From: Minisyncoccota bacterium
GTDB taxonomy: Bacteria > Patescibacteriota > Minisyncoccia > Phycocordibacterales > UBA2135
Length of the DNA: 64,000 nt
Direction: 5' to 3'
Assembly: GCA_040879685.1 (NCBI GenBank)
Contig: JBBDJW010000012.1
Coordinates: 14,233 to 78,232, forward strand
In this document: in pieces, positions 8,802 to 28,231 of the stretch
Numbering within the stretch: the stretch's first letter is position 1
Layout of the letters: every line of letters begins with the position of its first letter
The notes under the pieces: model-generated
What the model saw: only the letters and a program-made list of their open reading frames with translations
Database searches by the model: none
What the model was told of the DNA's origin: nothing
Made by a program: the position numbers and the translations under genes

Positions 8802-9034
8802 AATAAATAAATAACTATTAACTATATGTTTATTATTATAAGGCTGTTGATAAGTGGATAAGTGTTTTAAATACTGTTTTTAAAGGAAGTTTTTAAAATA
8901 TTTTTTCTAACAAAATGTTTATAGTTGAGGAATAATATGTTAATAACTTTTTACTTTTAATAAAACACTACTTTTTACACATATTATTAACTGAAAAATA
9001 AAAAGTTATTAACACACTTGCTCACAGCCTTTAA
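8802..9034. promoter_or_regulatory. AT-rich intergenic region downstream of dnaA with DnaA-box-like sequences; putative part of oriC (DNA-unwinding side)
   Basis: AGTGGATAA (reverse complement TTATCCACT, 8/9 match to TTATCCACA) and TGTTGATAA are present in a very AT-rich 230-bp tract between dnaA and dnaN. Confidence 0.45.
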
Positions 9035-10387: not shown

Positions 10388-10586
10388 GACGCTTGATATG
10401 GTTGGGTTATGTAGTTTTTAATTATAGCCACAGAACTCTATGTAGCAAAGTTTTTAAAACGGGGAATAGTGTGTTGATAATTTGTGTATAACTATCCTAG
10501 TAAAAATGATATTACTTTTCATTTTACCACAAAAAAATTTTTTAATTTTTGACAAAAAAAGTATTTTAGTGTAAATTACTATAATT
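10388..10586. promoter_or_regulatory. dnaA/rpmH divergent control region with DnaA-box-like sites (TGTGTATAA = TTATACACA; TGTTGATAA) and a sigma70-like promoter for rpmH (TTGACA at 10551-10556 plus TATAAT at 10578-10583)
   Basis: The motifs can be read directly in the sequence. This is the classical oriC position between dnaA and the rpmH-rnpA operon. Confidence 0.5.
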
Positions 10587-10773: not shown

Positions 10774-11121
10774 ATGTTGCCAAAAAAACATAAGGCGACC
10801 AGCGCACAAGTAGAGGCCCTTAAAAAAATACCACAAAAAAAAACACATCATTCACCCTCCTTTACTCTTCTTGTTTATAAAAAAAGAGACCAAAAAGAAG
10901 TCAGTACAATAACTTTTATTATTTCAAAAAAAATAGCCACCAAGGCGGTTTTGCGAAATAAATTAAAAAGAAGAGGGTATTCGGTGGCACAAGAATTGTT
11001 TTTCCGCATTCAAACAGGCTTTACATTGGTATTTTATTTTAAAAAAGAAAGTGTTCATAAAACACATAAAGAATTTTTCCTTGAAATACAAAAACTTTTA
11101 AAAGAAGCGCATGTTTTATAA
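10774..11121 (+). CDS. rnpA: Ribonuclease P protein component
   Basis: Small basic protein with an RNR-like basic motif (LRNKLKRRGY) in the canonical rpmH-rnpA position. Confidence 0.75.
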   Translation: MLPKKHKATSAQVEALKKIPQKKTHHSPSFTLLVYKKRDQKEVSTITFIISKKIATKAVLRNKLKRRGYSVAQELFFRIQTGFTLVFYFKKESVHKTHKEFFLEIQKLLKEAHVL

Positions 11122-11359
11122 AAAAAACAGAACAATAAAAAGTCTTTTTGTTTTTTACAAAAAATTTCTCTCTCCAGACGAAGGGTTTTTCCGCTTTCTC
11201 TTTAACCAAACAACGCCGGTTTGTGTTTTCTATCCCACATGCTCAGAGTATGTAAAACAATCTATTGAGAAAAAAGGATTATTTCAAGGACTTTACACAG
11301 GACTAAAAAGGGTTCTTCGATGTCATCCTTGGCAGAAGAGGCACATTGATCTCCCTTAA
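11111..11359 (+). CDS. yidD: Membrane protein insertion efficiency factor YidD
   Basis: FYPTCSEY ... LRCHPW conserved YidD motifs. The gene overlaps the rnpA stop and precedes yidC. Confidence 0.8.
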   Translation: MFYKKNRTIKSLFVFYKKFLSPDEGFFRFLFNQTTPVCVFYPTCSEYVKQSIEKKGLFQGLYTGLKRVLRCHPWQKRHIDLP

Positions 11360-11368
11360 TATATTTCT

Positions 11369-12124
11369 ATGATTTCAAATATCTTTTTCACCACCCTTTA
11401 CCAACCAATCTACAATAGTTTGGTTTTTTTGGTGTCCTTTATGCCGTTTTATGACATTGGGCTTGCGGTTGTTCTCCTTACTTTAGTTGTTAAATTTATA
11501 CTCTTTCCTCTTGCACATAAAACAACAAAAACACAGGCCTCTATAAAAGTTTTTGAACCCGAAGTTCAAAGACTAAAAGAAGAATATAAAGAAGACAAGC
11601 AAGAGCAGTCGCGAAAGATTATGGAGTTGTATAAAAAACATGGAGTGAATCCATTTTCAGGTTGTCTCTTATTTCTTGTTCAATTCCCCATCATCATTGC
11701 TCTTTATTGGGTTTTTTGGAAGGGATTGGAGAATGGAATCAATACAGAACAACTTTATTCTTTTGTTATTGCTCCAGCAAAAATATCAACTGACTTTCTT
11801 GGCCTCATTGATATTTCCGGGAGAAGTTTTTTCCTTGCAGCACTTGCTGGCATTTCTCAGTATTTTCAAATTAAACTTTCAATGCCCTCCACTCTCCCCA
11901 AAAAAGAGGGAGCCCCCGCTTCTTTTAAAGAAGATTTTAAAAGAAGTTTCCAGCTTCAAATGCGCTACGGCCTTCCGGTTTTTGTTTTTTTTATTGCTTA
12001 CACCATATCGGCCGTCATAGCCCTCTATTGGCTAACCTCAAACCTTTTTTCTATTGTGCACGAACTTTTTGTAAAAAGAAAAGTTACACAACTTTTATCA
12101 AACAAAGAAGAAGGAGTGGTATAA
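11369..12124 (+). CDS. yidC: Membrane protein insertase YidC/Oxa1 family (short form)
   Basis: Multi-TM protein with the YidC C-terminal motif (YWLTSNLFSIV) in conserved operon context. Confidence 0.85.
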   Translation: MISNIFFTTLYQPIYNSLVFLVSFMPFYDIGLAVVLLTLVVKFILFPLAHKTTKTQASIKVFEPEVQRLKEEYKEDKQEQSRKIMELYKKHGVNPFSGCLLFLVQFPIIIALYWVFWKGLENGINTEQLYSFVIAPAKISTDFLGLIDISGRSFFLAALAGISQYFQIKLSMPSTLPKKEGAPASFKEDFKRSFQLQMRYGLPVFVFFIAYTISAVIALYWLTSNLFSIVHELFVKRKVTQLLSNKEEGVV

Positions 12125-12160
12125 TCTCTTACAATTTTTTAGCTTCTAGCTTGTTAGTTT

Positions 12161-12299
12161 ACTGAGAAACCTCACTTGGAAGCTAAGTTTCCAAGTGAGG
12201 TTTCTCAGTGATAAACGGAGACATATCACAAGTTACGAAAACGGATTTTTGGGATACCTACACCCCATAATGCGCTATAGCGTATTATGGGGTGTAGGT
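12161..12299. repeat. Two long near-perfect hairpins in tandem (12161-12209 with a 21-bp stem; 12254-12299 with a ~22-bp stem) downstream of yidC
   Basis: ACTGAGAAACCTCACTTGGAA...TTCCAAGTGAGGTTTCTCAGT and TACCTACACCCCATAATGCGCTA...TAGCGTATTATGGGGTGTAGGTA. Neither is followed by a clear T-run. Confidence 0.5.
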
Positions 12300-12652
12300 A
12301 CTTATGGTGATAAGCGATAAAATATTTCATACTATATATATTTCATACTATATACGTCCGAATACTTCCGAAGTGCAGAAGAGTTTGTAACTTTGTGAAA
12401 GTTACAAAATCCAACACGCCACCCGTCTGGCGTATTCAAAAAGGTCTAGGACAAAGCCCTTTTTTCTCATACTTGCCAACCATTAACCTACAATTTATAA
12501 CAAACCTTACTATTTTTGTTTTCTACCATCTTCTAAAACACCAATTTTAATAATTTATATACCTAATATTCTTAAAGTTACTCGGACCACTAATAAAACA
12601 TACCTTGGTTGCGTGAGGTCATTTTTTAGTGTAGGTTAGAAATACTTAAAGT

Positions 12653-13153
12653 GTGCGTATGGAGATGGACTTTATTAAAAAAACAATAGAATCTCTTTTA
12701 AACAAGCTTGCCGCTGATGCAAAACTTGAGAGCGCTTTTCCTCTTCATGGTGGTGAGATTACTAAGTTCTCTATTAAAACAAACGAACCCTTTCTTTTAA
12801 TAGGCAGGGAAGGAAAAACATTGATGGCGATGAATCACCTTGTAAAGAAAATGTTTGAAAACGAAATAATCAACAAGGGATATAAACATATTAACTTTAT
12901 TATTGATGTCAACGACTATCAAGAAAAAAGAATTGAGGAAATAAAAAACAAAGCAAACATTATTGCTGAACGGGCTCGTTTTTTTAAAAACAACGTAGAA
13001 ATGTCGCCAATGAATCCTTATGAGCGGATGATTGCACATTCTATTTTTACCAACACCCCTGATATAGAAACAGAATCTGTTGGTAGAGGGAGAGAGCGGC
13101 GGGTTGTGGTAAAGTACATAGATACAACCTCTTCACCAGAAACGGTGTTGTAA
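12653..13153 (+). CDS. jag: Jag/KhpB-like RNA-binding protein (KH plus R3H domains)
   Basis: C-terminal R3H motif (NPYERMIAHSIF ... GRGRERRVVVKY) in the canonical position after yidC. Confidence 0.75.
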   Translation: MRMEMDFIKKTIESLLNKLAADAKLESAFPLHGGEITKFSIKTNEPFLLIGREGKTLMAMNHLVKKMFENEIINKGYKHINFIIDVNDYQEKRIEEIKNKANIIAERARFFKNNVEMSPMNPYERMIAHSIFTNTPDIETESVGRGRERRVVVKYIDTTSSPETVL

Positions 13154-13201: not shown

Positions 13202-14446
13202 CTATTCCAACTTCAGTCGCCATAGGGTACCGTCTTTTTTATTTTGAAACAACAAAAAGCGTTCCTCCACATCAAGCTCTAGATTAATTACATCAAAAGA
13301 ATTGTTTAATGACTCTTGTGTTACTTGGGAAACAGAACCTCTTTCTACATCAAGTTGCCATATCTCATCACTAAAGGAGACTACCCCCCTATACCAATCA
13401 TCAGGATATAATGCCTTCTCTGGCGCTTGCGGCACCGCACAAAATGCCCTCTGAGGGCTTACCCTGCTCCACACACACTTCTCCGGTAGTGTGGCAAGGG
13501 GGAAAACTAGACTGTTTCCGCTCTCTCTATTATAGGAGATGATTCTAGAGAGGGTTTGCCCACGCATCTCTCCATAGAGGATGTTTCGCCCATCAAAAGA
13601 GGGTTGTGTGGTAAGCCCGGGAATGTTGTTTAAAAGAGGCACGATTCGTTCATTTGATAGGGTGAGAAGAATGCTCTGCCCCAAAACACCATTTGATGGT
13701 TTTGTGGTAAGAATAATTTGATTTTCTGTAGGCCAACCAACCAACCACTCTTTAAATGGGTGAGCAAAAACCTGCTCCTTGTCTCCGTTCTTTATATTTA
13801 AAATTGTACCAATCACAATATCACCAAAAGATCTAAGAGAGAACACCTTATCTCGCTCTGGTGAAAGAGTAAGAGCCTCTATATTCTCTTCCAAAAATTC
13901 TCCCTCCAAGCTTCCCACACCACTCTCCCCCCCCACAATGTTTCCCATAAATGTTTTTATAACTTCGCCGTCTAAATATTGGACGAGAAGTCTCTTCTCG
14001 TCATCACTCCACAACACTCTCTTTAGCGCCAGAAGGGTAGTGTTGGTAAGACGAACCTTTTCTAAGGTTTCTGGGTTTACCTCAAAAATATTGCCTGTTG
14101 TTTGTTCAACATACCTCACAGTCAAATGTTCCTTCTCGTCTTCACCAATGCGGTGAAACGATGCCCCCACCACCGGTGTACTTGAAAGCTGGAGCAGAGC
14201 ATTTCCCTCTCCTGCCTGCCCCGCAAGGGGTCCATCTTCTAACCCGTCTCCGTCTTGAGAGGGATCGCTTTGTGGAGGTCTTCGCACAGGCTCATCTGCG
14301 CCACCTCCTCCAAATGGAATAAAGTCGCGCAAGACTTCAACGGGCGTTTTGTCCTCTCGCGGGGCGATAATAAAGGCGGCAACAAAAATCCCTATTGCTA
14401 TGAGTGTTAAAATACCTATTATAATAAATGAAATTTTACGGGGCAT
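13202..14446 (-). CDS. Membrane-anchored extracytoplasmic protein; N-terminal TM, Pro/Gly-rich linker, possible beta-propeller body
   Basis: TM helix FIIIGILTLIAIGIFVAAFII followed by a low-complexity linker. No catalytic motifs were recognised. It is the first gene of the minus-strand secretion cluster. Confidence 0.45.
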   Translation of the reverse strand: MPRKISFIIIGILTLIAIGIFVAAFIIAPREDKTPVEVLRDFIPFGGGGADEPVRRPPQSDPSQDGDGLEDGPLAGQAGEGNALLQLSSTPVVGASFHRIGEDEKEHLTVRYVEQTTGNIFEVNPETLEKVRLTNTTLLALKRVLWSDDEKRLLVQYLDGEVIKTFMGNIVGGESGVGSLEGEFLEENIEALTLSPERDKVFSLRSFGDIVIGTILNIKNGDKEQVFAHPFKEWLVGWPTENQIILTTKPSNGVLGQSILLTLSNERIVPLLNNIPGLTTQPSFDGRNILYGEMRGQTLSRIISYNRESGNSLVFPLATLPEKCVWSRVSPQRAFCAVPQAPEKALYPDDWYRGVVSFSDEIWQLDVERGSVSQVTQESLNNSFDVINLELDVEERFLLFQNKKDGTLWRLKLE

Positions 14447-14452
14447 ATGAAT

Positions 14453-15190
14453 TTAATATAATTTGTCTATCTCTGCTTTATCAGCACACGTCGAAGCCCT
14501 ATCTGTGTCTTCCGCGGCTGCGATGCATTTATCAAGATCATTTCCAAAACAAAATAAAGAACCTGACCCTGTTTTTTTATAACAAAAATTAATATCAAGA
14601 ACACCTTGGTCTGTGATATTTTTACAAGTAAAGGTGGGCTCGTTGGTTGCGTTGTTTGCAACGTCTGCCACTCCTAGACATTCTTGCGCTGTTTGGTAAC
14701 AGTTTTGGTTAGTGGGGGTTTCTCCAATAGTGATTAAACAATATTTTTTATCAGAAGGAATATCAATGCTCCCAACATCATCAGGTGTCTCTATCGCGGG
14801 GACAGTTATTTTAAACACATCAATATTAAACTTAAGCAATTCGGGGTTAATTGTTTGCAAGATAAGCACCGATGAGCTTATAAGCACAAGGCCGATAACC
14901 GCGGACCATATTCGTTTTAGTGCGGCACTTTTATCGGTAATCGCTTCACTTAACATATATTGCATACCGCCCACAACAACCATAACAACCGCTAAAACAA
15001 TAGTTACACCAATAAGAAGTTTAAAAAGCTGTGTCAAATAACCCCCTAACCCAACCTCCCTTAGATCAATCTCATCTAGTGGAGCAAGGGGGGTATAGTC
15101 AATTGCGAAAACAGGAAGTGCAACGAAAAAGAAAAGAGCACATGAGAGTGAAAAAAAGGAAACAAAGTGTTTTTTTATAAAGGCAATCAT
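14453..15190 (-). CDS. Pilin-like membrane protein of the T4SS-like cluster (signal/TM, second TM, Cys-rich exposed C-terminal domain)
   Basis: Two hydrophobic helices in VirB2/TrbC-like topology, and at least 8 Cys in the C-terminal about 90 aa. Confidence 0.4.
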   Translation of the reverse strand: MIAFIKKHFVSFFSLSCALFFFVALPVFAIDYTPLAPLDEIDLREVGLGGYLTQLFKLLIGVTIVLAVVMVVVGGMQYMLSEAITDKSAALKRIWSAVIGLVLISSSVLILQTINPELLKFNIDVFKITVPAIETPDDVGSIDIPSDKKYCLITIGETPTNQNCYQTAQECLGVADVANNATNEPTFTCKNITDQGVLDINFCYKKTGSGSLFCFGNDLDKCIAAAEDTDRASTCADKAEIDKLY

Positions 15191-15191
15191 A

Positions 15192-16226
15192 TTAATTTCC
15201 TAAGCGAGAGGCCTCTCCAAATGTTATAGATAAAAAACGACGCACTTCTTGAAGGAAGTTATTTCTATTTGTAATTTTAAGTCCAATACGAGAACGGCCA
15301 GCCTCCTCCGGTTTTCTAAGGGTGATTTCTTGCCCTAAAGCACCTGTAATTTCTTTTCCATTGAGCAACCATGTAAATACTAAATTACTACCCACATCTT
15401 CTTGTGAAAAAAAATATGGTTCAGCGTGGAGTGTGATTTCATCAGGGAAAAAAGAATATTCTCCGCCAAGTGCTCTTTCAGAAAGGACTCCTCGTAAAGG
15501 GTGTTTTTCATAAAAGAAAATTTCCGGCTCTTGAGGAGAAAGAGTTAGAGAGGCTTCTCCACGGAGAGACCCTCCAAAAGAAGAGATGGCAACAGAGAGA
15601 TCCATTTCTTGAAACAGCGAAGGACCTGTTATGGTGAGCGTTTGTTTTCCAAACCCAGAAAGGCTTCCCAACACTCTTCCGTTACGAGACCATGTATACA
15701 CGAGCCCTTGTGGATTTAAAAACGAAACACCGTCCACACTAAACCACGGTAGTGCAGTAACAACAATTTTATTATCTGTTGTTAAAAGTGCCTTTCCTTT
15801 ATAAAAGGCAGGAGTATAGGTGTTGCTCTCCCATAAAAGAGAGACAAGTGTTGGAGTAAAACGAATTTCTTCGTTTAGTACAACACCTTCCGGCGTTGTC
15901 GCAGTAACTGAAACGCGGGTTTCTTCACCGACCTCACCCACTTTTATAGTGATTTTCTTTACCCCAACTCCTGATGTAAAAAGAGTGCCATTAACGAACC
16001 AGCGAAGCGTTGCTCTGTTAAGGTCCACACTAAAGCTCTCCACATTTATAAACACCTCTTCTTGAGGGGCAGGTACTTGTGGGAAGAATTTTATAATAAA
16101 GTTTTGTTGAGGAATTTGGGCGAAAAGAGAGTGAGATGAAAAAAGAAAACCAAAAAAGAAACCACAAAGCAATGACAGGGTTGCTGAAAGGATGCGTTTA
16201 TTTCTTTTACTATAGAGAAGGGGCAT
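15192..16226 (-). CDS. Secreted or membrane-anchored protein of the T4SS-like cluster
   Basis: N-terminal signal/TM (LSLLCGFFFGFLFSSHSLFA) with a beta-rich body and no recognised enzymatic motif. Confidence 0.45.
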   Translation of the reverse strand: MPLLYSKRNKRILSATLSLLCGFFFGFLFSSHSLFAQIPQQNFIIKFFPQVPAPQEEVFINVESFSVDLNRATLRWFVNGTLFTSGVGVKKITIKVGEVGEETRVSVTATTPEGVVLNEEIRFTPTLVSLLWESNTYTPAFYKGKALLTTDNKIVVTALPWFSVDGVSFLNPQGLVYTWSRNGRVLGSLSGFGKQTLTITGPSLFQEMDLSVAISSFGGSLRGEASLTLSPQEPEIFFYEKHPLRGVLSERALGGEYSFFPDEITLHAEPYFFSQEDVGSNLVFTWLLNGKEITGALGQEITLRKPEEAGRSRIGLKITNRNNFLQEVRRFLSITFGEASRLGN

Positions 16227-16243
16227 AATTACAGCTTATCACA

Positions 16244-18061
16244 CTACTCATTTGTTTGTTTGTGTTCCTGGCGCGTTTTTTTAAGTGATAAAATCTCGGA
16301 GGGGTCGGAGGTAATAATTTGGTCTTCCGTATACGAGGCAATAATTTTTATTGCAACATGTTTAAGTCCGGCAAAAAAGATTCCCTCTCCCACATCGGAT
16401 TCAAGAAGAAGATATTTTTCTTCATCTGTTAAATTGAAGGTTTTCTGAACTGTATCAACCGTTGTGGGAGATTGTTTAAGAAGAAGCTGTATTGAAGAGT
16501 TGTTTATAATAGGTTCGCCATATTCTGATTTCAGGAAGTCACCAACATCCTGTGTGATCGTGGCGAGGCCAAGATAGTATTTTCGTCCTCGCTTAGCAAG
16601 GCTATAGAGGAACGAAGCAGTGTCTTTTTGTTTCATCATCCACCATGCCTCATCAATTACCAAAAGCCTTTTCTTGAGTTCTTGGCGGATTGTGTTCCAG
16701 ATAAAGTGCATTACAATATACATTGCCACCGGCTTCAACTCGTCCTCCATATCACGAACAGAGAAGACCACAAATCGTTTATTAATATCAACATTGGTTG
16801 GTCGGTTTAAAAAGCCCTCCCAAGTACCTTTTGTGTATTTAATAAGCCTTGCGGAGAGTGATCCTGCTCCATCCATTCCCGCAAGAACCAGTTCAAAATC
16901 AGAAAGAAGAGGTGCTTCAATTTTTGAAAAATCAGACTCGGGGGTAATGTCTTTAAGTGCGTATGTTTCCGTAATAGCGCGGTCAATAACAGAGTCTTCC
17001 TCAGGACTAAGCCCTCCAAGCATAATTCGGAAAAGTCCAACAAGACTTACAATATTTGAACGGAGAACATCAGCAGGAGACTCATCTTCACGTACAGGAG
17101 GGAGGTCAAAAGGGTTAATATGATGCTCCGACGTGAGGGAGACATTGAAATATCTCCCCCCCGTTGCTTCGGCCAAGTATTCATATTCTTTTTCAGGGTC
17201 AATTACCAAGACATCTATGTCAAACATCAAGGAGCGAAGAATTTCTAATTTTGTTGCGTACGACTTACCAGACCCTGATGTTGCAAACATCAGAGAGTTA
17301 TAGTTGGGCATTGAAAAACGGTCAAAGAGCACCAAGCTTGTGTTGTGTCTGTTTACACCGTAAAGAATTCCTCTATCTGAAGTGAGATCAAAGGAGACAA
17401 AAGGGAAAAAACTTGAAAGTGGTGAGGAGTTTAGTTTTGAATGAATCGAGAGTGAATCATGCCCCACCGGCAACACACTGGTGAACCCTTCTTCTTGTTG
17501 AAAGAGGGCGGGACGCAGGTAGATAAGCTTTGTCTCAAGAAGTGATTTAATTTCTTGTTCAAGCTTATCAAGTGCTCGCTCATCATCTGCATAAATAGTG
17601 ATATAGAGCCCAACGTTGAAAAGTTTTTCCTGCGCTTGTTGGAGTTTATCGCGAAGCGACTCAAGATCTTGATACGCGATATCAAGCACAGGGTCTCTCA
17701 CCAACCCTTTTTCTTCGCGGATAGAAATTTGACTTTGCACTTCAGCAACTTTTTTTTGAAAATCCCGTAGCGCGCGAGAAGTGTCTATTGGGTGGATGAA
17801 CAGCGAGATATCAAAGACCTTGTCTAAGTTAATTATAGGAGAGAGCCAGTTATCATTAAGATACCGTGGGTATGAAATTGCAAAGAAGGTTCGGGCAGTT
17901 TTATCTCCCAAATGCAGTTCCTTGGGGCTTATTTTAAGGGCGGCCGGAGCAATAATATCTCTCAACTCTAATACCCCCGCCTCATAGATGTCTTGCGGTA
18001 AAATCGGAGAAATCTCTGCCGTATCTTTTTTTCTTCCTAGTAATGTGTCTAATAATCCCAT
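16244..18061 (-). CDS. VirB4/TrbE/PrgJ-type conjugal-transfer ATPase, C-terminal ATPase part; in frame with the upstream ORF across a single TAA
   Basis: Walker A ATSGSGKSYATK and Walker B RLLVIDEAWWMM, with VirB4-like C-terminal organisation. Confidence 0.75.
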   Translation of the reverse strand: MGLLDTLLGRKKDTAEISPILPQDIYEAGVLELRDIIAPAALKISPKELHLGDKTARTFFAISYPRYLNDNWLSPIINLDKVFDISLFIHPIDTSRALRDFQKKVAEVQSQISIREEKGLVRDPVLDIAYQDLESLRDKLQQAQEKLFNVGLYITIYADDERALDKLEQEIKSLLETKLIYLRPALFQQEEGFTSVLPVGHDSLSIHSKLNSSPLSSFFPFVSFDLTSDRGILYGVNRHNTSLVLFDRFSMPNYNSLMFATSGSGKSYATKLEILRSLMFDIDVLVIDPEKEYEYLAEATGGRYFNVSLTSEHHINPFDLPPVREDESPADVLRSNIVSLVGLFRIMLGGLSPEEDSVIDRAITETYALKDITPESDFSKIEAPLLSDFELVLAGMDGAGSLSARLIKYTKGTWEGFLNRPTNVDINKRFVVFSVRDMEDELKPVAMYIVMHFIWNTIRQELKKRLLVIDEAWWMMKQKDTASFLYSLAKRGRKYYLGLATITQDVGDFLKSEYGEPIINNSSIQLLLKQSPTTVDTVQKTFNLTDEEKYLLLESDVGEGIFFAGLKHVAIKIIASYTEDQIITSDPSEILSLKKTRQEHKQTNE

Positions 18062-18067
18062 AATTTT

Positions 18068-18760
18068 TTATTGCTCTTTACCCCTTTCTCGTTCCATAGG
18101 AATTGGCTTCTCAAGCTCTCCTGGGTTAAAAATACGGTAATAAAGCTCAACCAACTCTTCTGTATGAAGTGGGGCTACACGAAGCCCTGTACTTGCAAGC
18201 CCCTGCTCAACCACCCCTGCCCGTTGTTCAAGTTGCGTTCGTGCCTCCTCAAATCGTTCTTGTTCATTTTTAACATCCACCTTCTTTTTTGCTGGTAAGA
18301 ATTTAGTAAAAAAACCTCCTTGGGTATTAAGTGTTGCCCGTTGATAGGGGACAACAATAAAAAAAGTTTTTTTCATAATATTTACGCTTTCGGTAAATTT
18401 TTTCACAAAATTTATATATTCAGTTACCTGTATTTTCATCAAATCAGAGGATTGATCCTTTCTCCTCTCCTCTAAAAGGGCAATGTAGGGTCGTATATCC
18501 AACTCTCGTGATTGAGTAAAAATTTGTAACGAGAAATCTAAGGAGTTCAGAAAGCTTTGAAACTGTTGCAGAATAGCTCGCTGTTCCTCTTCTGATTTCA
18601 GCGCAAGATTGTGTGATGAGGTCATCAAAACCATTCTTAAAGAGCCGTCCTTGAGAATGACGACGCCATTTTTTATTTCTTTTATGGGAACGAAATTTTG
18701 TGCTGGTTCAGCCATAGGTTGGTGAATAGTTAGTATCTTAGTGGGTAGGTTTGTTCGCAA
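18068..18760 (-). CDS. VirB4-family N-terminal domain, separated from the ATPase part only by an in-frame TAA
   Basis: The pattern ILKDGSLRMVLMTSSHNLALKSEEEQ resembles the VirB4/TrbE N-domain. The stop at 18068-18070 is followed by two codons and then the ATG of the downstream ORF in the same frame. Confidence 0.6.
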   Translation of the reverse strand: MRTNLPTKILTIHQPMAEPAQNFVPIKEIKNGVVILKDGSLRMVLMTSSHNLALKSEEEQRAILQQFQSFLNSLDFSLQIFTQSRELDIRPYIALLEERRKDQSSDLMKIQVTEYINFVKKFTESVNIMKKTFFIVVPYQRATLNTQGGFFTKFLPAKKKVDVKNEQERFEEARTQLEQRAGVVEQGLASTGLRVAPLHTEELVELYYRIFNPGELEKPIPMERERGKEQ

Positions 18761-18781
18761 ATTGGTGTGTTATATATGGTA

Positions 18782-19249
18782 TTACGAGGAGTGCCTTGCT
18801 TCATTGCTTTGTGCGTAGATACTGTCATGGACATCAAGACTCCATGAAATATCTTTAAGCTTGCTATCGGAGAGTCTGGGAACAAAAAGCGAAGAAGCCA
18901 CCTGCTTTTCTTGTTTAGGGGTAATTTTTTTATCTTGCCTCTTCCAGATATAAAGTTTTCCAGTCATGAGAAAACGAAAGAAGGACTCTAAAAGAGCGAT
19001 AAAGGGGCGATTATTTACTTTATAAAAAGCAAGTGCAAGTGCGAGCGCTCCAACGGGAGCGATAACCAAAATCGCAATAAAGAGGGGTAAAAGAGAATAA
19101 GCAAGAAATGCCATTGCCGCCCCACCGGCAAGATAAATAAATTGCTTGAAGGTGAAGGGACCAAAAATTTTATTTTCTACTTCTATAAATTGTGGTACTT
19201 GAAAACGCATACTGTTTATGTGGCTTGTGGTAGATAACTTTTTGCACAA
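18782..19249 (-). CDS. PrgI-family (VirB3-like) small membrane protein
   Basis: VPQFIEVENKIFGPFTFKQFIYLAGGAAMAFLAY matches the PrgI-family N-terminal signature and is followed by two TM helices. The gene lies directly upstream of VirB4, as in Gram-positive T4SS. Confidence 0.55.
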   Translation of the reverse strand: MCKKLSTTSHINSMRFQVPQFIEVENKIFGPFTFKQFIYLAGGAAMAFLAYSLLPLFIAILVIAPVGALALALAFYKVNNRPFIALLESFFRFLMTGKLYIWKRQDKKITPKQEKQVASSLFVPRLSDSKLKDISWSLDVHDSIYAQSNEARHSS

Positions 19250-19422
19250 GCACCTTATTTTGATTTTCTTACTATCCTCCGACCCCCTTTCTTTTTTCGG
19301 TGCAGTTCCTCAATCTAGTTAAGTATAACAGATAAACTCAACCTTCTTAACTGTGATAGTGTCCCCAACCACTCTTTTTATGGCTTTGTGACATATGTTT
19401 TGATTGAAGGATTCCTCTACAA

Positions 19423-20382
19423 CTATTCAATGGGTTCTCTGTATGGATCTGCCGCGTACTCTTTCTTATCAGGCTTCTTTTCTTGAGATACTTGTCCCTC
19501 CTCATCTGCGTGCTCTGAGGGTGCCTTCTTTGGTTGTGGTGTTGGTGCACGAGGAGTCTCTTCTTTTTGAGTTTGTGGAGGTGCTTCTTCTTTGCTCTCC
19601 TGCGGGGTATCTGTTTGTTTTTCTTCTCTTGCCGATGGAGCTTGTAACCCTCGTCCTTCTTTTTTTATAGGAAGGTTTAGAGGAGGTTTTTCTTTGTTTA
19701 TTTTCACGAGGACTTTCTTTTGGGACTCTATGTCCTGGACCTCTTTTTCTTCTTCTCCCACATTGCTTTGTATTTTTATATCACGAAGCCTGTCGGGTAT
19801 GATGACATTCTCTTCCCCCTCAAACGAGCCCTCCTCTCCTCGCGGGTCCAAGGGCTCGTTCTTTTTGGGAGTGACAACAAGCGGTTCGGGCGCTTTGTTT
19901 TCAAGGCCGGATTTTTCTTTTTCCAGTTCGGGCTCTACGCGCTCTTCCATCCCTTTTTTTATTTCATGTTTAACGGGAATTTTTCTTTTTGGGAGAGGAA
20001 CTTGATAGGCATCTTCACTCTCCCTTTCAGAGGGAAGCGGCTGGTTTTCCCTCCTTTCTTTTTTTAGGGAGTGAATCTCTTTCAATGATTCACGAATAGG
20101 GTGAAAAACTTCTTTATTAACATCTTCCGCAATTGCACGCGCCTTTTCCCTCTCAACGCCTATTCGCTTGGCAAGATTACTAATAAATTCATTGGGGTGT
20201 GTAAGGCCAAGTATTACAAAAGTTGTTTCATCCACTAATCCACCCAAGGCATCTACATGAAGATTGTGTCTTTTTCCTATTTTTTCAAGCGCATCAAATA
20301 CCTCTGTTGAAGCAGCAGCAGTTTGTATGTCTTGAGGTAGTTTTTTTATAAATTCTTTTATTGTTGCAGAGTTTTTGTCCAT
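19423..20382 (-). CDS. Hypothetical protein with a Glu/Pro/Lys-rich low-complexity C-terminal half
   Basis: The long ORF has good codon structure but no recognisable motif. The dense antisense ORFs in the track are low-complexity artefacts. Confidence 0.45.
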   Translation of the reverse strand: MDKNSATIKEFIKKLPQDIQTAAASTEVFDALEKIGKRHNLHVDALGGLVDETTFVILGLTHPNEFISNLAKRIGVEREKARAIAEDVNKEVFHPIRESLKEIHSLKKERRENQPLPSERESEDAYQVPLPKRKIPVKHEIKKGMEERVEPELEKEKSGLENKAPEPLVVTPKKNEPLDPRGEEGSFEGEENVIIPDRLRDIKIQSNVGEEEKEVQDIESQKKVLVKINKEKPPLNLPIKKEGRGLQAPSAREEKQTDTPQESKEEAPPQTQKEETPRAPTPQPKKAPSEHADEEGQVSQEKKPDKKEYAADPYREPIE

Positions 20383-20399
20383 AGTCTCATTGGTGTGTT

Positions 20400-22250
20400 T
20401 TACTCAGTATCCTTATCGTCTTTTTTATCATCATCACTTTCGTCTTTCTTTTTCTCTGTCGGCTTTGATTTAATTGTTTTCGCCTCTTGCCGTAATGTTT
20501 TTATTTCCCCCCTAATTTTTTCTTTTTTCTTGTCAAGTTCCTCTTTTTTCTTGTCAAGTTCCTCCTCTAGGTTTTCTAGGCGACCCAACTCCTCTAGTTC
20601 AGCGACAGTTACTTTCTCACCTCTTTCTTCTTTACTATGAAGGTCACTACTATAGCTTGATAGTTTTTCGTAGTTTGATTTGATTCCATTCTTTAATTCC
20701 CTTTCTTCTTTTTCTAATTCTTTTTCTTCTGACTCCTTTATCTTAAGTATAAGTTGGGTTGCCGCAACCGTTCTATTTCGGAAGATGTCCCCCAAAGGAC
20801 TTCGTGGAGAGAGGACATTTTTAATATAATCCTCATCCTTATCTCCTCCGATAGATTTCGCAAAGGCAACACGTTCCTCAATCTTAGTGTCCAATTCCTT
20901 CTCATACCCTCCCTTTCCTAGTGCCTTTCCCATACCAGTGATTGATTTGCCGGCGACCTTTGCACTACGAGCATCATAGCTGGCAGTTGCCAAGCTACGA
21001 GTTCCCTGAAGAAGCGTTCCGGCAACACGACCTTTGATCGCCGCTTTTTGAAACCTTTCACTGCTTGCAAGTATGCTGGCTCCTCGTCCGAGGAGTTGCC
21101 GCCCGCCAATTCCCACTGCTCCGAATGTAAGAGCGCCGGTCGTCGCCTTTGCTGTTTTCATCACCGTCTCTGCTCCCATTAAACCAAATTGTTTTGCGAG
21201 TATATACGAGCCATAGATAAGAGCGATGACGATAGCAAACTGAAAGAGCACCGCAAAGAATGAAACTCCACCGACATCACCGGCAAACCAGCCGGCAACA
21301 GCACCCGAGAAACTCAAATCTTCTTCACCAACGCCCGGGAGCAGGCTTCCTGTGCCTATAATCATCACCGTCAATGTTATAAGAAGAATATAAGCGGGCG
21401 CATAAAAAGAGTATTTTAAGAGATGGCTCCACCACAGATTATAATACTTCTCTGTCCCGGGGAGAATTCTGGCGACAAATGCAAGAGGCGAGAGCACCAT
21501 TAAAAACATCAACATTACCGAACGGACAATAAACATTATCGCCGCAGTTCCAAAAGAAAAGACGGCGATGAGCGTAGCTATCGTTCCTACAATGTAAACG
21601 GTGAAAAGCCTACTCGGGTTCAAAACAAATGCCCCTGCAGTACCCCCGAGACCCTCAACACCTTCATTTACAATAGTTTGCAGACGAAGGCCATTCGCAA
21701 GACTTGCTGACAACCCCCCCTCGGCGGTTATTTGCTCATAAAACGCAACGGCAAAAATATTTGACGCATCAATTACAAGTTTTGTGAAGAAAAGGCTGAA
21801 GTTAACAAGAAGTGCAACGACAACGAGCGAGGTAAGAATTTTCTTTGTTTCAAAGCCTCCCGCCTGAAGAATGGTCATTATGGAAATATAAACGAGGATA
21901 AAAACAAAAACAACATTAGAAAGATCGCGCACAGCTCCCCACGCGACATTAACTGCCCCGACAGAGAGGCTGTTAATGTCTAATGAAAAAGTAATGCTTG
22001 TATCAAGAAGCCACGCACTCGCCGTGAGGATAAGGCCGGAAAGGTTGAATAGTCCTTCCGCAAGAAGATTTGGTATTAAAAGCGCAAACGCCTTAAGACC
22101 CCCTACAATATCAAGAGGGTTGGCAAACACAAAAGAGTCCGGAAGAGGGGCAAGAAAAAGGAAGAGTATAAATATCACAAACCACGAAGTGTGTCTTGGT
22201 GAGAACTTCTTTGGCAGTCTATATGCAATGTTTTGTAGTAGTCGCTTCAT
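20400..22250 (-). CDS. Polytopic membrane protein, VirB6/TrbL-like, with a C-terminal charged coiled-coil tail
   Basis: At least 8 predicted TM helices across about 450 aa, then a KELEKEE...KKDESDDDKKDD tail. Its size and position are typical of a VirB6 analogue. Confidence 0.5.
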   Translation of the reverse strand: MKRLLQNIAYRLPKKFSPRHTSWFVIFILFLFLAPLPDSFVFANPLDIVGGLKAFALLIPNLLAEGLFNLSGLILTASAWLLDTSITFSLDINSLSVGAVNVAWGAVRDLSNVVFVFILVYISIMTILQAGGFETKKILTSLVVVALLVNFSLFFTKLVIDASNIFAVAFYEQITAEGGLSASLANGLRLQTIVNEGVEGLGGTAGAFVLNPSRLFTVYIVGTIATLIAVFSFGTAAIMFIVRSVMLMFLMVLSPLAFVARILPGTEKYYNLWWSHLLKYSFYAPAYILLITLTVMIIGTGSLLPGVGEEDLSFSGAVAGWFAGDVGGVSFFAVLFQFAIVIALIYGSYILAKQFGLMGAETVMKTAKATTGALTFGAVGIGGRQLLGRGASILASSERFQKAAIKGRVAGTLLQGTRSLATASYDARSAKVAGKSITGMGKALGKGGYEKELDTKIEERVAFAKSIGGDKDEDYIKNVLSPRSPLGDIFRNRTVAATQLILKIKESEEKELEKEERELKNGIKSNYEKLSSYSSDLHSKEERGEKVTVAELEELGRLENLEEELDKKKEELDKKKEKIRGEIKTLRQEAKTIKSKPTEKKKDESDDDKKDDKDTE

Positions 22251-22300
22251 TGTAAGATAAGAGTGTTAACCCGATGTTTCTTTCTTCACTATCTTCCTCT

Positions 22301-23662
22301 TTACTCGCTACGCCTTTCAATTTCTGCTATAAGTGCATTTATTTCACTAAGCTCTTCTTGTGCAGACGCGAGGTCATTTGCATGTGTTTCTCCTTTGAAC
22401 CCATCAAATTCTTTTGAAATGGTGTTTATCTCCTCTAGAGATTCCGCGTTGATGGTTTGTGTTTTTAGGGTGTTTAACTTGGTGAGAACAGGATAAGTCT
22501 CAATCAAATCTTCTCTAAGAGGTGTTCTTAGGTTTTTAATTTCCCACGCTTTTTGAGCCCTGAAGAAGGAAAGAGATGGCTTACCTTCGAGATTTTTGAG
22601 TTTTTCTTCCGCTTCATCAAGCGCCACCAACGAACTATTTTTTGTGTTTTGATAGGTTTCCTCATTGTCTATATAGACATCTATGATACGGACAACTCCG
22701 TCGCGTGAGCGGGTGAGAGTATCAAGGTCTTCTGTTGGAACTTCTGTGTTTCCACCCCCCCTGCGCGAATCATCACCGCTCTTAAGAAGCCCCTTCGCAC
22801 CAACAAATATCTCATCTATAAGTTTTCCAAGAAGAGCATTTACTACTTCACCAATACTGTCTGCAAGGTTAAGCTGGTCAATGTCGCTCTCGACTGTGAG
22901 TTTTTTAATCCTATCCCGTACAAGACTTCCCGGGGTGATAGTTTCAGAATCAGTACACTCACCTTCTTCATTTCTGGCTTTGCACTTTTGAGAGCTTAAA
23001 AATCCACTTGCCCAATCAAGCTCTCGCTCTGTATTTTGCGCTTGTTGGCGAAGAAGGCTATTGAGCTCTGTACTGCTCTTTGCATATTGCCCATAAATGG
23101 TGTTTTGAGAGTTGGTAATTTGCCTTCTCCACACATCCCATCCACCGCGTCTGAAATCTTGATGATAATCGTCCAAAACTTCCTGCGCAATAGTGCGCGT
23201 ATCCGTAACCCTTCTCTCTCCGGCGCAGGGGCGCGCCGCTAAGAGTGAGCGAGCAATGACACGCTTTTCTTCTGGAGAATAGCTCGTATCATCGCCAAGT
23301 TTGTCCATGAAGCGATTAAATGTTTGCGTACAAATGAACGCAAAATACGCGTCTTTGTTTGTTATGTAAAGCGGGTTGCCGTCAAAGCCGTTGTTTATCC
23401 AGTTGATTGTCTGCTGGGTAATTTGCGCGACAAGGGCCTTCGCGACTGCCCATGCGATACCGTCAAGAACCTCTTCTCTGAAGGACTCCTCCAACATTTG
23501 GATGAAATTTGAAAAATCAAAAGTAGGCCAACCCCCAGCCTCTACTTCCTGTGGTTTTATTAAAAAGGAGCTCGGAAGCAGAAAGACAACCAAGAGCAGA
23601 ACCACAAGTATTTTTTTAGAAAGATTTTTTTTCATAAGCCGCTGACTCATTGTGTGTTCCAC
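22301..23662 (-). CDS. Secreted protein with signal peptide (T4SS-like cluster)
   Basis: N-terminal signal (ILVVLLLVVFLLPSSFLI). No enzymatic motif recognised. Confidence 0.45.
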   Translation of the reverse strand: MEHTMSQRLMKKNLSKKILVVLLLVVFLLPSSFLIKPQEVEAGGWPTFDFSNFIQMLEESFREEVLDGIAWAVAKALVAQITQQTINWINNGFDGNPLYITNKDAYFAFICTQTFNRFMDKLGDDTSYSPEEKRVIARSLLAARPCAGERRVTDTRTIAQEVLDDYHQDFRRGGWDVWRRQITNSQNTIYGQYAKSSTELNSLLRQQAQNTERELDWASGFLSSQKCKARNEEGECTDSETITPGSLVRDRIKKLTVESDIDQLNLADSIGEVVNALLGKLIDEIFVGAKGLLKSGDDSRRGGGNTEVPTEDLDTLTRSRDGVVRIIDVYIDNEETYQNTKNSSLVALDEAEEKLKNLEGKPSLSFFRAQKAWEIKNLRTPLREDLIETYPVLTKLNTLKTQTINAESLEEINTISKEFDGFKGETHANDLASAQEELSEINALIAEIERRSE

Positions 23663-24591
23663 ACATATCCTGCCTCGTGCTCCTTAAACTCAACACCCTT
23701 GTTCTTAAAAAAAAGGGAGAGAGAGGCAAGAGATTGTTGCATTTCCCCAAGAGCATTACGATACTCATCAAAACTAAACTTTCCTAAAATGGCATCTTTG
23801 TGAACGCGGCTCATTCCTGTAAGAGAGTTAGCAGTTTTTTTATATGAGTTTACAAGCTGGAGAAATATGCCAACGCTTTCACTCGGGACAGAGAGAGTTA
23901 AGATATCTTTTGCAAGTCCATCAAACACAACAGATTGCTCCTGAATTTTATCGGCAAATTCCGGGAGAGAATTAAGAGCAAGTGTCTCAAAAAGAGAAAG
24001 AACCTCCTGTACGTTGATTGCTGGGTTGGCTTGTAGCTGTGTAGCGAGGATGTTTCCAAAAGCACGTAACTCATCATTTGTCGTGTTATGGGCGATTGTC
24101 ATATCATCTCGCGTATATTGAGCAATGTCAGGTTTTTCTAACTGGTGCACGAGATTAGAAATAATCTCATCTTCATCTTGGAAGTTGTCACCTTGGCTGA
24201 TATTTAACGAACTTACAAAGAGAGATTTTGCAAACTTTTCGGTAAGATTACCACTTTCTGATTGGAAGAAGAAAGATTCTTCTATGCCATATTTTTTTGT
24301 AATTTCTTCTCCATCATACAAAGAAAGATCTCCGCCGAATTGTATGTAGTCATTCACACCGTCTCCGTCGGTGTCGGGGTTGTTTTTGTCGCTTCCCACA
24401 AGCACCTCCTCCCAATCCTTAAGCCCATCGCCGTCACTGTCCTCTTGAAAAAAGGACAGCTCACCCTCGGAAACATAAAAAGAACCTTCTTTATTCTTCC
24501 CAAAGGTGTCTTGCTCACCCCCTTTTACCAGAACAGCTCCCGTTAGCAAAAGAAGAGAAAATCCAATCGCGATAAATAAGTTTTTTTCCAT
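23647..24591 (-). CDS. Secreted protein with thrombospondin type-3-like Ca-binding repeats (DxDxDG)
   Basis: Signal peptide; DSDGDGLKDWEE and DTDGDGVNDY motifs. Confidence 0.5.
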   Translation of the reverse strand: MEKNLFIAIGFSLLLLTGAVLVKGGEQDTFGKNKEGSFYVSEGELSFFQEDSDGDGLKDWEEVLVGSDKNNPDTDGDGVNDYIQFGGDLSLYDGEEITKKYGIEESFFFQSESGNLTEKFAKSLFVSSLNISQGDNFQDEDEIISNLVHQLEKPDIAQYTRDDMTIAHNTTNDELRAFGNILATQLQANPAINVQEVLSLFETLALNSLPEFADKIQEQSVVFDGLAKDILTLSVPSESVGIFLQLVNSYKKTANSLTGMSRVHKDAILGKFSFDEYRNALGEMQQSLASLSLFFKNKGVEFKEHEAGYVWNTQ

Positions 24592-27214: not shown

Positions 27215-28231
27215 ATGGTGCATAGGGTACCTTTTTTTGTGGTATTCGTTTTGCTTTTCACTATTCCGGCAGTACATGCACATGCCGGAATTTTTTCATT
27301 TGTAAACAATTTTTTAAAAAAGAATGTAGAAGAGTCGGTTTCCTCCAAAGGTAATGTGCAAAATCTTGCGCTTCTTCAGGCGGCACTCAACGTAGATCCA
27401 AACCCAGCAAAGGGAGGGGGGGAAATTACCGTTGTTGGTGACAGCGCTCTCTTACCCGACACAGGTCCTCTGGGAACCATTGCTGATATGGAGGAGAGTG
27501 CACCGTCGTCGGATAAGATTAGTATCTATATCGTTCGTGATGGAGATTCTCTTTCCCAGATTGCCAAAATGTTTGGTGTTTCTACCAATACTATTATTTG
27601 GGCAAACGACATTAGCCGAGGAGACTTAATTCGCGAGGGACAAACACTTGTCATTTTGCCACTTTCAGGTATTAAACACACCGTGGAAAAAGGAGATACC
27701 TTGAATGGTATTGTTAAAAAATATAAGGGAGACATACAGGAGATTCTTGATTTTAATGATTTAACGGAAGACGTGACTCTTGCTGTTGGAGATGAAATTA
27801 TTATTCCTGATGGAGAACTTGGAACGGTGCGGCATACAGAAATTCAATCAAAGAATATTGTACGGGGAACATCAGGACCGTCGTACGTTGGCTACTACAT
27901 AAATCCAGTCCCCGGCTCACGAAGATCACAAGGTATTCATGGATATAACGGGATTGATCTTGCCGCTCCATACGGTACGCAAATTCTTGCCTCAGCAGGA
28001 GGCACCGTCATCTTGAGTCGTTCATATGGATGGAATGGTGGGTATGGAAATTATGTCGTCATTCGTCACCCTAATGGAACTCAAACACTCTATGCACATA
28101 ACTCACGAAACATTGTAAGCGTTGGAGCTTCGGTAGTACAAGGGCAGGTAATAGGATATGTTGGTTCAACGGGCCGCTCAACAGGGTCTCATGTTCACTT
28201 TGAAGTTCGTGGTGCCAAAAATCCTTTCTAG
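27215..28231 (+). CDS. Secreted LysM-domain M23 peptidase (peptidoglycan hydrolase)
   Basis: Signal peptide; two LysM repeats (DSLSQIAKMFGV..., DTLNGIVKKYKG...); M23 motifs HxxxD (HGYNGIDLAA) and HVHFEV. Confidence 0.85.
   Translation: MVHRVPFFVVFVLLFTIPAVHAHAGIFSFVNNFLKKNVEESVSSKGNVQNLALLQAALNVDPNPAKGGGEITVVGDSALLPDTGPLGTIADMEESAPSSDKISIYIVRDGDSLSQIAKMFGVSTNTIIWANDISRGDLIREGQTLVILPLSGIKHTVEKGDTLNGIVKKYKGDIQEILDFNDLTEDVTLAVGDEIIIPDGELGTVRHTEIQSKNIVRGTSGPSYVGYYINPVPGSRRSQGIHGYNGIDLAAPYGTQILASAGGTVILSRSYGWNGGYGNYVVIRHPNGTQTLYAHNSRNIVSVGASVVQGQVIGYVGSTGRSTGSHVHFEVRGAKNPF

Follow-up and report, generated by a model that had tools for sequence, protein, structure and literature searches.

The DNA analysed here is a stretch of 64,000 nucleotides (the window) of contig JBBDJW010000012.1 from a Minisyncoccota bacterium, and on its minus strand, between positions 13202 and 24591, it carries a compact type IV secretion system (T4SS). 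The list of open reading frames (ORFs) gives ten co-oriented ORFs in this interval, all of them intact, which we refer to as g1 to g10 in the order of transcription. As the gaps between them range from -16 to +50 nt, with the single exception of 173 nt between g4 and g5, g1-g10 make up one operon, or at most two. Judged by sequence, these genes are predicted to specify a VirB4 motor whose N-terminal module is supplied in trans, VirB3- and VirB6-like partners, a pilin and four exported or anchored accessory proteins. The original prediction, made without database searches, had described a compact Gram-positive-type T4SS, and this agrees with the components found here (PrgI/VirB3, VirB4, a VirB6-like protein and a VirB2-like pilin, related to MPF_FATA), down to the four proteins with a lone N-terminal hydrophobic segment that it had listed as signal-peptide proteins. 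It had counted nine genes instead of ten, the uncounted one being either g6 (18068-18760) or g4 (19423-20382). The system is not new: earlier work has described it in Patescibacteria and noted its place beside dnaA in Paceibacteria (PMC12102498); the locus is a typical Paceibacteria copy of what is already known.

The motor, its membrane partners and the pilin

For comparison, one genome per GTDB species was scanned, which yielded 80 loci, all from Patescibacteria metagenome-assembled genomes (MAGs). The window proteins were searched against these loci by tblastn, and many of the misses reflect contig ends or divergence. The motor gene g7 (16244-18061, minus strand, 605 aa) encodes a VirB4 ATPase of the MPF_FATA/CD1110 type that lacks an N-terminal domain of its own. 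It scores above the cutoff of the CD1110 family model NF045971 (377 bits against 325; E = 1.4e-112), aligning with profile positions 185-733 of 752, and matches the P-loop_TraG model PF19044 (E = 2.8e-28). The translation contains an intact Walker A (GSGKS) and an intact Walker B (LLVIDEAW), in line with the VirB4 that had been predicted. Its homologues number more than 8,000; the best 120 of them are ~600-700 aa long and share 76-86% identity with g7, and all of these 120 whose source is named come from Parcubacteria, Paceibacterota or Patescibacteria MAGs. A BLAST search of VirB4 against the six-frame ORFs of the window found no paralogue.

VirB4 had initially been taken as one gene, and its split into g6 and g7 was overlooked. 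g6 (18068-18760, minus strand, 230 aa) is TrsD-like and corresponds to a separate VirB4 N-terminal domain: it matches NF041427 (TrsD/TraD; E = 2.2e-7) and aligns with positions 2-124 of the CD1110 VirB4 model and 103-235 of the Mbov_0397 VirB4 model, with NCBIfam scores that lie under the full-length cutoffs, while its N-terminal part matches PF11130 (TraC_F_IV; E = 6.8e-5). The orthologues on two long annotated contigs among the loci, L081 and L082, are annotated as TraC-like (PF26593), and g6 adjoins virB4 in 79 of the 80 loci. In the window, the two genes share a frame and lie 6 nt apart (a TAA followed by two codons). Across 78 loci, however, each of the three possible frame relations between them occurs (in 40, 24 and 14 loci), and g6 ends with TAA in 59. 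The variable frame together with the mostly TAA stop excludes an origin of the split by frameshift, pseudogenization or read-through, and the occurrence of all three frames implies that the two-gene arrangement is ancestral and functional. Its counterpart is the TrsD-TrsE pair of pGO1-type systems, and TrsD is the most abundant T4SS component in Patescibacteria (PMC12102498).

The two membrane partners are encoded upstream. g5 (18782-19249, minus strand, 155 aa), a PrgI/VirB3-like protein with two transmembrane (TM) segments (residues 38-79), contains VPQFIEVENKIFGPFTFKQFIYL and exceeds the cutoff of PF12666 (40.3 bits against 27; E = 4.8e-10), in keeping with the PrgI-like protein proposed from the same sequence; its true start is probably Met14, at ~19210. 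PrgI is also annotated at this position in L081 and L082. g3 (20400-22250, minus strand, 616 aa) is a VirB6-like polytopic protein of the 'extended VirB6' type, with about seven TM segments within residues 20-355, followed by a region rich in Gly and Ala and a long coiled-coil tail with many charged residues. Thus, the polytopic build and the charged tail of the anticipated VirB6-like protein are present, while homology to TrbL/VirB6 stays below the cutoff (PF04610, residues 136-319; E = 7e-5, 23.1 bits against 25.9). Both the topology of g3 and its position upstream of VirB3-VirB4, seen in 60 of the 80 loci, fit VirB6. The gene order from g3 and g5 onward is presumably that of prgH-prgI-prgJ on pCF10.

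The pilin is encoded by g9 (14453-15190, minus strand, 245 aa), a VirB2-like T4SS pilin with a Cys-rich tail. It has a signal peptide, two TM helices and nine cysteines; the pilin domain ends with TINPELL at about residue 118 and leaves a tail of 127 aa. On its own, g9 falls just under the cutoff of the T4SS_pilin model PF18895 (24.6 bits against 26.6; E = 2.7e-5), and its match to TrbC has an E-value of 0.006. Its orthologues bear out the assignment, and with it the two-TM, Cys-rich pilin-like protein that had been predicted: 43 of 46 positional orthologues match PF18895 (best E = 2.4e-10), and nine match TrbC/VirB2. With a hidden Markov model of the pilin domain, g9 was the sole pilin-like ORF in the window.

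Beyond the pilin domain, the family diverges sharply. Among the 46 orthologues the ~120-aa pilin domain forms one BLAST cluster, and the tails of at least 60 aa (n = 41) fall into 29 unrelated clusters, 24 of which are singletons; tail length ranges from 0 to 436 aa across species. The Pfam domains found in these orthologues comprise YkuD (three members), NlpC/P60 and Amidase_5 (two each), VanY and 3D (one each), as well as four SLT-type family matches over SLT, SLT_2 and SLT_3. Three tails have matches in the PDB, to SLT (E = 5.7e-15), a VanY-type carboxypeptidase (E = 6e-6) and a CwlO-type NlpC/P60 enzyme (E = 1e-4), and the enzyme lay C-terminal to the pilin domain in all five cases checked by motif position. 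Other tails are coiled coils or Cys-rich modules (tailed orthologues are found, for instance, at L004:14879-15868, L058:12932-14023, L072:12870-14111 and L011:7688-8893). The tail of the window pilin, a unique module with eight cysteines, matched no family and bears no enzymatic signature. This tail diversity fits a structure-clustering preprint in which many freshwater-specific clusters carry PF18895. The texts of the published Patescibacteria T4SS papers that we compared make no mention of a fusion between pilin tail and enzyme.

Besides, eight tails (in L009, L025, L038, L049, L051, L052, L063 and L075) share a domain of the form C..C...ITGGTExWLH...H.PG..(V/I)DL....HWHV, in which the conservation of His, Asp and Glu hints at an enzyme that requires a metal. 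Its reading as a LAS/M15 metallopeptidase is unsupported, as a profile search of the PDB returned no match.

By its topology, the C-terminus of the pilin is extracellular, and the tails may serve the cell's own wall, in the role of VirB1, or attack the envelope of a host. The latter use leads to effector export as an explanation of the whole system, in which proteins, including pilin-borne cell-wall enzymes, would be delivered into or onto the host. The SLT, NlpC/P60, VanY-type, YkuD and 3D domains of orthologous pilins do recall polymorphic toxins, the cytoplasmic protein g4 (see below) carries a motif at its extreme C-terminus, as do some T4SS substrates and adaptors, and protein export is among the options suggested by Wang 2023 (PMC10633639). 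Conversely, no coupling protein that could recruit cytoplasmic substrates was found in the window, the pilin enzymes could equally act on the cell's own wall, and the Cys-rich tail encoded here does not look like an enzyme. We regard export as a rather doubtful account of the locus, albeit one to be taken seriously.

Conservation and genomic setting of the operon

Among those of the 80 loci that extend far enough, most preserve the order uvrD, g1-g10, jag-yidC (on the other strand) and dnaA, in the same orientation. Matches to g6 were found in 79 loci, to g5 in 77 (median identity 50%), to g8 in 76, to g10 in 64, to g9 in 62, to g3 in 60, to g2 in 48, to g4 in 43 and to g1 in 28. The accessory genes have thus kept their linkage to VirB4 (76, 64, 48 and 28 of 80 loci for g8, g10, g2 and g1), loss of which would have spoken against the original prediction. 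L081 and L082 show the same neighbourhood, and L082 additionally contains an M23/LysM hydrolase, KsgA, DnaN and PBP1. That this gene order recurs in 80 other species places the features of the locus far beyond chance. In the same loci, the median identity to the window protein amounts to 75.8% for VirB4, compared with 58.5% for DnaA, 49.8% for UvrD and 45.6% for YidC. The extracytoplasmic proteins of the operon reach only 24-38% and are hence fast-evolving, in contrast to the strongly conserved motor. Collinear synteny, a VirB4 more conserved than DnaA and flanks made up of housekeeping genes together identify the locus as a core operon that is inherited vertically and kept under strong purifying selection, and not as a mobile element or the remnant of one.

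This bears directly on the idea of a decayed integrative and conjugative element (ICE) that would have lost its relaxase and coupling protein and ceased to function. In its favour, the family of this VirB4 (CD1110) is one that Gram-positive ICEs typically carry, and the window, as initially noted, holds no relaxase, VirD4-type coupling protein (T4CP) or VirB11 among its ORFs, whether these were scanned with Pfam or searched by BLAST as six-frame ORFs. All ten ORFs are nonetheless intact, and their position and order are identical in most of the loci of the 80 species. VirB4 exceeds DnaA in conservation, the TrsD/VirB4 split is conserved without a frameshift, and orthologues are essential and expressed. 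Nor are there integrase or repeat boundaries: the one integrase-family gene of the window, a Xer-type tyrosine recombinase (35239-36156, plus strand), is 10 kb away from the operon and surrounded by housekeeping genes. With neither a relaxase nor a T4CP found in the window, and with a location and order fixed across 80 species, the locus does not look like a conjugative element; synteny excludes the mobile-element reading, and synteny and conservation together refute a decayed ICE, which we consider barely conceivable.

The surroundings are those of a dnaA region. dnaN (7698-8801), dnaA (9035-10387) and rnpA-yidD-yidC-jag (10774-13153) are found on one side, and the flanks further encode proteins of replication, recombination and repair (RuvB, DnaN, DnaA, ComM), of translation, transcription and RNA turnover (TyrRS, PNPase, CCA-adding enzyme, RNase Y, NusA), of the envelope and protein quality control (PBP1a, MscS, an HtrA-like protease, trigger factor) and of central metabolism (TIM, PGK). 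The comM gene (28307-29875) and the two PilB-like ATPases that had been pointed out are real. The latter are PilB-type (T2SSE) ATPases on the plus strand, one at 54118-55854 and the other, a fragment at 1-684, cut by the start of the window; both belong to type IV pilus systems and not to the T4SS.

Further observations concern the gene neighbourhood and the chromosome. A KsgA gene is found between uvrD and the operon in L081 (2946-3884) and L082 (2730-3527) and is absent from the window. Just past uvrD, 2.6 kb from the operon, there is a gene for an M23 peptidase with LysM domains (27215-28231, plus strand), which has the same relative place in L082. Given that VirB1 candidates with M23/LysM domains are mentioned in the phylum survey (PMC12102498), this peptidase may supply a VirB1-like wall-opening function. 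Sites resembling DnaA boxes are more frequent in the window than expected (28 versus 14.7), for example at 39102-39130, 10472-10491 and 8845-8861. The tightest cluster, three boxes of which one is perfect, sits at 39.1 kb near tRNA genes, and the cumulative GC skew has its minimum close by, at ~38 kb. The replication origin may therefore be located near 39.1 kb instead of beside dnaA, and the leftward fork would then move in the direction in which the T4SS operon is transcribed.

Accessory proteins of the operon

The secreted proteins had been thought to have no recognisable homologues. This does not hold for three of them, which display known folds or motifs, namely a TolB-like propeller, Ig-like repeats and TSP3 repeats. 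The TolB-like propeller is found in g10 (13202-14446, minus strand, 414 aa), which is composed of an N-terminal TM anchor (residues 1-31), a Gly/Pro/Asp-rich linker and a beta-propeller that resembles TolB at the level of sequence profiles: a profile of 36 orthologues matched TolB structures in the PDB with E-values from 9e-6 to 5e-5, and some orthologues match PD40 or DPPIV_N. Unlike TolB, g10 is TM-anchored in a monoderm, has no detectable TolB N-terminal domain and no Tol-Pal partners nearby, and it keeps a constant place as the final gene of a T4SS operon, in 64 of the 80 loci.

g8 (15192-16226, minus strand, 344 aa) combines a signal or anchor segment with Ig-like beta-sandwich repeats and is extracytoplasmic. 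The fold follows from its orthologues, 5 of 37 of which match BiPBP_C (best E = 2e-5), with further matches to Ig_3, TIG and Big_2, and a g8 profile hit the phage Hoc Ig-like protein (E = 0.0035). The gene lies downstream of VirB4 in its 76 loci, and directly so in many. An extra small ORF (141-209 aa, no family) stands between VirB4 and g8 in L081 (11894-12523) and L082 (11836-12261) and is absent from the window.

The first gene, g1 (23647-24591, minus strand, 314 aa), encodes a signal or anchor segment (residues 3-25) and TSP3-type DxDxDG repeats at about residues 49-82. The calcium-binding repeats had been read correctly: g1 matches TSP3_bac (PF18884; E = 3.4e-5), and in the PDB its family profile matches Bap (E = 7e-7) and lanmodulin (E = 6e-5), over the repeat alone. 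The C-terminal ~200 aa belong to no known family. g1 is found upstream of g2 in 28 of the 80 loci, and a TSP3 protein occupies the same position in L082.

g2 (22301-23662, minus strand, 453 aa) is a secreted, mostly alpha-helical member of an unnamed family that is recognised in alignments by the core WINxGFxGxPxF...GGW..W...PQNNxYGAY...GFLS..C...C..TPGSVI...LADE and has a variable C-terminal part. Four cysteines are near-invariant in the family; the window copy is divergent and lacks two of them (the CSPF...CTL pair). No Pfam or NCBIfam model matches g2, although an exhaustive search puts its family at 5,928 clusters (50% identity, E ≤ 1e-3), as against 16 proteins from a word-indexed profile query. 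In a few members, the C-terminal domain is of the Bact_surface_Ig-like, discoidin or PG_binding_1 type, and in 48 loci g2 stands directly upstream of the VirB6-like gene. Two AlphaFold2 models, from alignments of 19 and 26 sequences, had a mean confidence (pLDDT) of 64 and 55 and were confident only in a C-terminal helical bundle (residues 313-452); with these low-confidence models, the best Foldseek match in the PDB had an E-value of 0.4.

In being secreted, mostly helical and encoded beside a VirB6-like gene, g2 resembles DUF4141, VirB5 and TrbJ proteins, and DUF4141 genes adjoin traJ (VirB6-like) in Bacteroides conjugative transposons, where their products are, we assume, probably TraI. The link is a weak one. 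N-terminal matches to DUF4141 were seen in 3 of ~110 family members (E = 1.3e-5, 9e-4 and 0.02), all under the Pfam cutoff, and the window g2 has none. As for VirB5, three profile searches against the PDB gave coiled coils alone, neither the PDB nor Foldseek with its low-confidence models provided a link, and the N-terminal motif behind the idea is not conserved in the family.

Unlike these exported proteins, g4 (19423-20382, minus strand, 319 aa) is cytoplasmic and charged, with neither TM segment nor signal peptide. Its alignment displays a helical head that is conserved over ~100 aa, a long linker that is disordered, variable and rich in charged residues and proline, and the C-terminal peptide DPYRE(P), which is found at the extreme C-terminus in 35 of 37 orthologues, the two exceptions being artefacts. 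The gene lies between those of VirB6 and PrgI in 43 loci and has no match in Pfam or the PDB. A folded head, a disordered linker and a conserved C-terminal peptide form a layout also known from FtsZ and SSB, and by analogy this suggests that g4 could serve to tether a partner, for example VirB4/TrsD. Searches of all ten proteins for a VirB8/PrgL/TraM-type domain gave no match at the sequence level, the folds of g1 and g2 not being resolved.

Variable surface domains on the pilin and on g2, and the lack of an ATPase for substrate recruitment, might argue for an organelle of adhesion only, i.e. a VirB2-type filament for host attachment through which nothing passes, all the more since VirB4 has an established role in pilin dislocation and pilus biogenesis. 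Adhesion, however, is already provided for in these genomes by type IV pili (PilB at 54118-55854 and 1-684), and the extreme conservation of VirB4, along with the retention of VirB6 and VirB3, suggests a channel. We thus deem a mere attachment filament distinctly improbable.

Possible function and comparison with known systems

Taken together, we think it likely that the locus represents an MPF_FATA-derived T4SS that has lost its relaxase and coupling protein and works as a host-engaging conduit, not as a conjugation apparatus. In such a machine, VirB4/TrsD, docked on VirB3 and VirB6, would pull the pilin from the membrane, and the pilin would be assembled into a short pilus or stalk across the monoderm wall, with g2, g8 and g10 forming the extracytoplasmic part in place of VirB7-10. 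The structure would engage, and possibly breach, the envelope of the host cell on which epibionts depend, and would then serve as a conduit that is independent of a coupling protein. The polymorphic pilin tails, some of them cell-wall enzymes, the fast-evolving extracellular parts and the adhesin-type domains of g2 all point to a pilus at the host interface. As to the direction of transport, we lean slightly towards the uptake of host macromolecules over export, because there is no T4CP for cytoplasmic cargo and these organisms are metabolically dependent on their hosts.

If the imported material were DNA, the locus would be a DNA-import machine akin to Ced/Ted or ComB, with host or environmental DNA as a supply of nucleotides. 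This is what the original prediction favoured, and some arguments can be made for it: a component set without T4CP and relaxase parallels Ced and ComB, as discussed in PMC12102498; the organisms lack nucleotide synthesis, according to the same survey; and VirB4 has weak matches to CedB (E = 8.5e-10) and CedD. Yet the CedB score of 38 bits against a cutoff of 700 speaks against a Ced orthologue, and no protein of the operon resembles a DNA-binding or nuclease component. In Southlakia epibionticum, the sole genetically tested relative, competence relies on ComEC and type IV pili, comEC can be deleted, and the T4SS is essential independently of ComEC (PMC12857230, PMC10633639). Nothing at the present locus shows DNA translocation, uptake or transfer; comM, the PilB genes and the repair genes that had been cited for it are ordinary housekeeping neighbours, generic to the dnaA region. 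Accordingly, we find DNA import unlikely.

Several points also weigh against the host-engaging conduit. The VirB6 assignment of g3 rests on a sub-threshold match, with TrbL matches (E ≤ 0.01) in just 3 of 41 orthologues and none in a profile search of the PDB. The roles of g2, g4, g8 and g10 rest on linkage and fold class only, and since no VirB8-like or VirB1-like gene was recognised in the operon, one can only guess at how the channel is built. A globular tail of 130-400 aa may keep the pilin from polymerising in the manner of classical VirB2; such a pilin might act as a carrier anchored in the membrane, or undergo cleavage. Genes for a coupling protein or relaxase may also be present elsewhere in the genome, and many VirD4 homologues do lie far from virB4 (PMC12102498).

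As a bolder extension of the host-engaging conduit, the single Paceibacteria VirB2-like pilin might be a carrier of polymorphic C-terminal 'warhead' domains and, together with the accessory set (the g2 family, Ig-like g8, TolB-like g10 and the g4 tether with its DPYRE peptide), might make up an undescribed, monoderm-specific outer architecture of a T4SS. We put this forward as speculation that is more apt to fail than to hold. If the tails were displayed on an assembled pilus, they would make it a species-tuned organelle for breaching or remodelling the host envelope.

Few machines have been shown to be indispensable to the epibiotic lifestyle of these very abundant, uncultivated bacteria, and the Patescibacteria T4SS is one of them. 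The present locus leaves the general picture of the system unchanged and has its value in the details, that is, in the folds of g10 and g8, the size of the g2 family, the layout of g4 with its DPYRE peptide and the polymorphic pilin tails. As a side result, the tails and the conserved accessory set are modestly novel. A fixed operon, a VirB4 more conserved than DnaA, five accessory genes that travel with it and rapidly swapped pilin tails, often peptidoglycan enzymes, provide testable candidates for host contact.

Compared with known systems, the tailed pilins call to mind two other groups of proteins. Like VirB1-type hydrolases, orthologous pilins end in SLT, NlpC/P60, VanY-type, YkuD or 3D domains, with the difference that the enzyme is here fused to the pilin itself, and they share with polymorphic toxins the layout of a conserved delivery module and a variable C-terminal domain. 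The window pilin differs from those enzyme-ended relatives in its Cys-rich tail.

Archaeal Ced/Ted and Helicobacter ComB likewise do without relaxase and coupling protein and combine a VirB4-like ATPase with a VirB6-like membrane protein and a VirB2-like pilin, and the locus may work in a similar manner. The scores for CedB (37.9 bits, cutoff 700) and CedD (20 bits, cutoff 600) are nevertheless far from those of orthologues, and the profile searches gave no match to VirB7-10, which form outer-membrane parts of ComB.

Closer ties exist to the MPF_FATA systems. pCF10 (PrgH-PrgI-PrgJ), pGO1/pSK41 (TrsC-TrsD-TrsE) and C. difficile CTn2 (CD1110) have the same order of VirB6-like, VirB3, (TrsD) and VirB4 genes, and the profiles matched are theirs, with VirB4 above the CD1110 equivalog cutoff and matches to PrgI and TrsD. 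Unlike them, the locus lacks a T4CP, a relaxase, a VirB1 of the PrgK/TrsG type, a VirB8-like protein of the PrgL/TraM type and the PrgB adhesin, and it is a core chromosomal operon, whereas those systems reside on mobile elements. It also has a VirB2-like pilin, which Gram-positive systems are without (PMC12857230).

The nearest relatives are the T4SSs of other Patescibacteria. Wang 2023 described in S. epibionticum an unusual Gram-positive-like T4SS (SEML1_0006-0019; PMC10633639) that has neither coupling protein nor relaxase and is essential for epibiotic growth, its pilins being essential as well (PMC10633639, PMC12857230). In the phylum survey of Quinonero-Coronel 2025 (PMC12102498), the Patescibacteria VirB4 proteins form a clade related to MPF_FATA, VirB4, TrsD, PrgI/VirB3, VirB6 and VirB2-like pilins are widespread, relaxases are almost missing, the Paceibacteria T4SS lies beside dnaA, dnaN, rnpA and rpmH, and the import of DNA or other macromolecules from hosts is proposed. 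A FEMS review of 2025 counts these T4SSs among the most exciting newcomers and stresses that they are essential independently of ComEC (PMC12857230), and T4SS pilins were among the most highly expressed unknown genes in cultures of Paceibacterales with methanogens (Kuroda 2024, PMC10936435). Some features differ: Saccharibacteria possess an array of six divergent pilins, as opposed to the single tailed pilin of this locus, and Southlakia has peptidase and lysozyme genes downstream of virB4 that are missing from this operon. g1, g2, g4, g8 and g10 are not identified in the text of PMC10633639 and PMC12102498 that was compared here. The locus shares with the Southlakia and surveyed systems (PMC12102498) the same component set, encoded on the chromosome: a VirB4 of this clade's type with TrsD adjacent, PrgI/VirB3 and a VirB2-like pilin, with no relaxase or T4CP at the locus, in the neighbourhood of dnaA, dnaN and rnpA.

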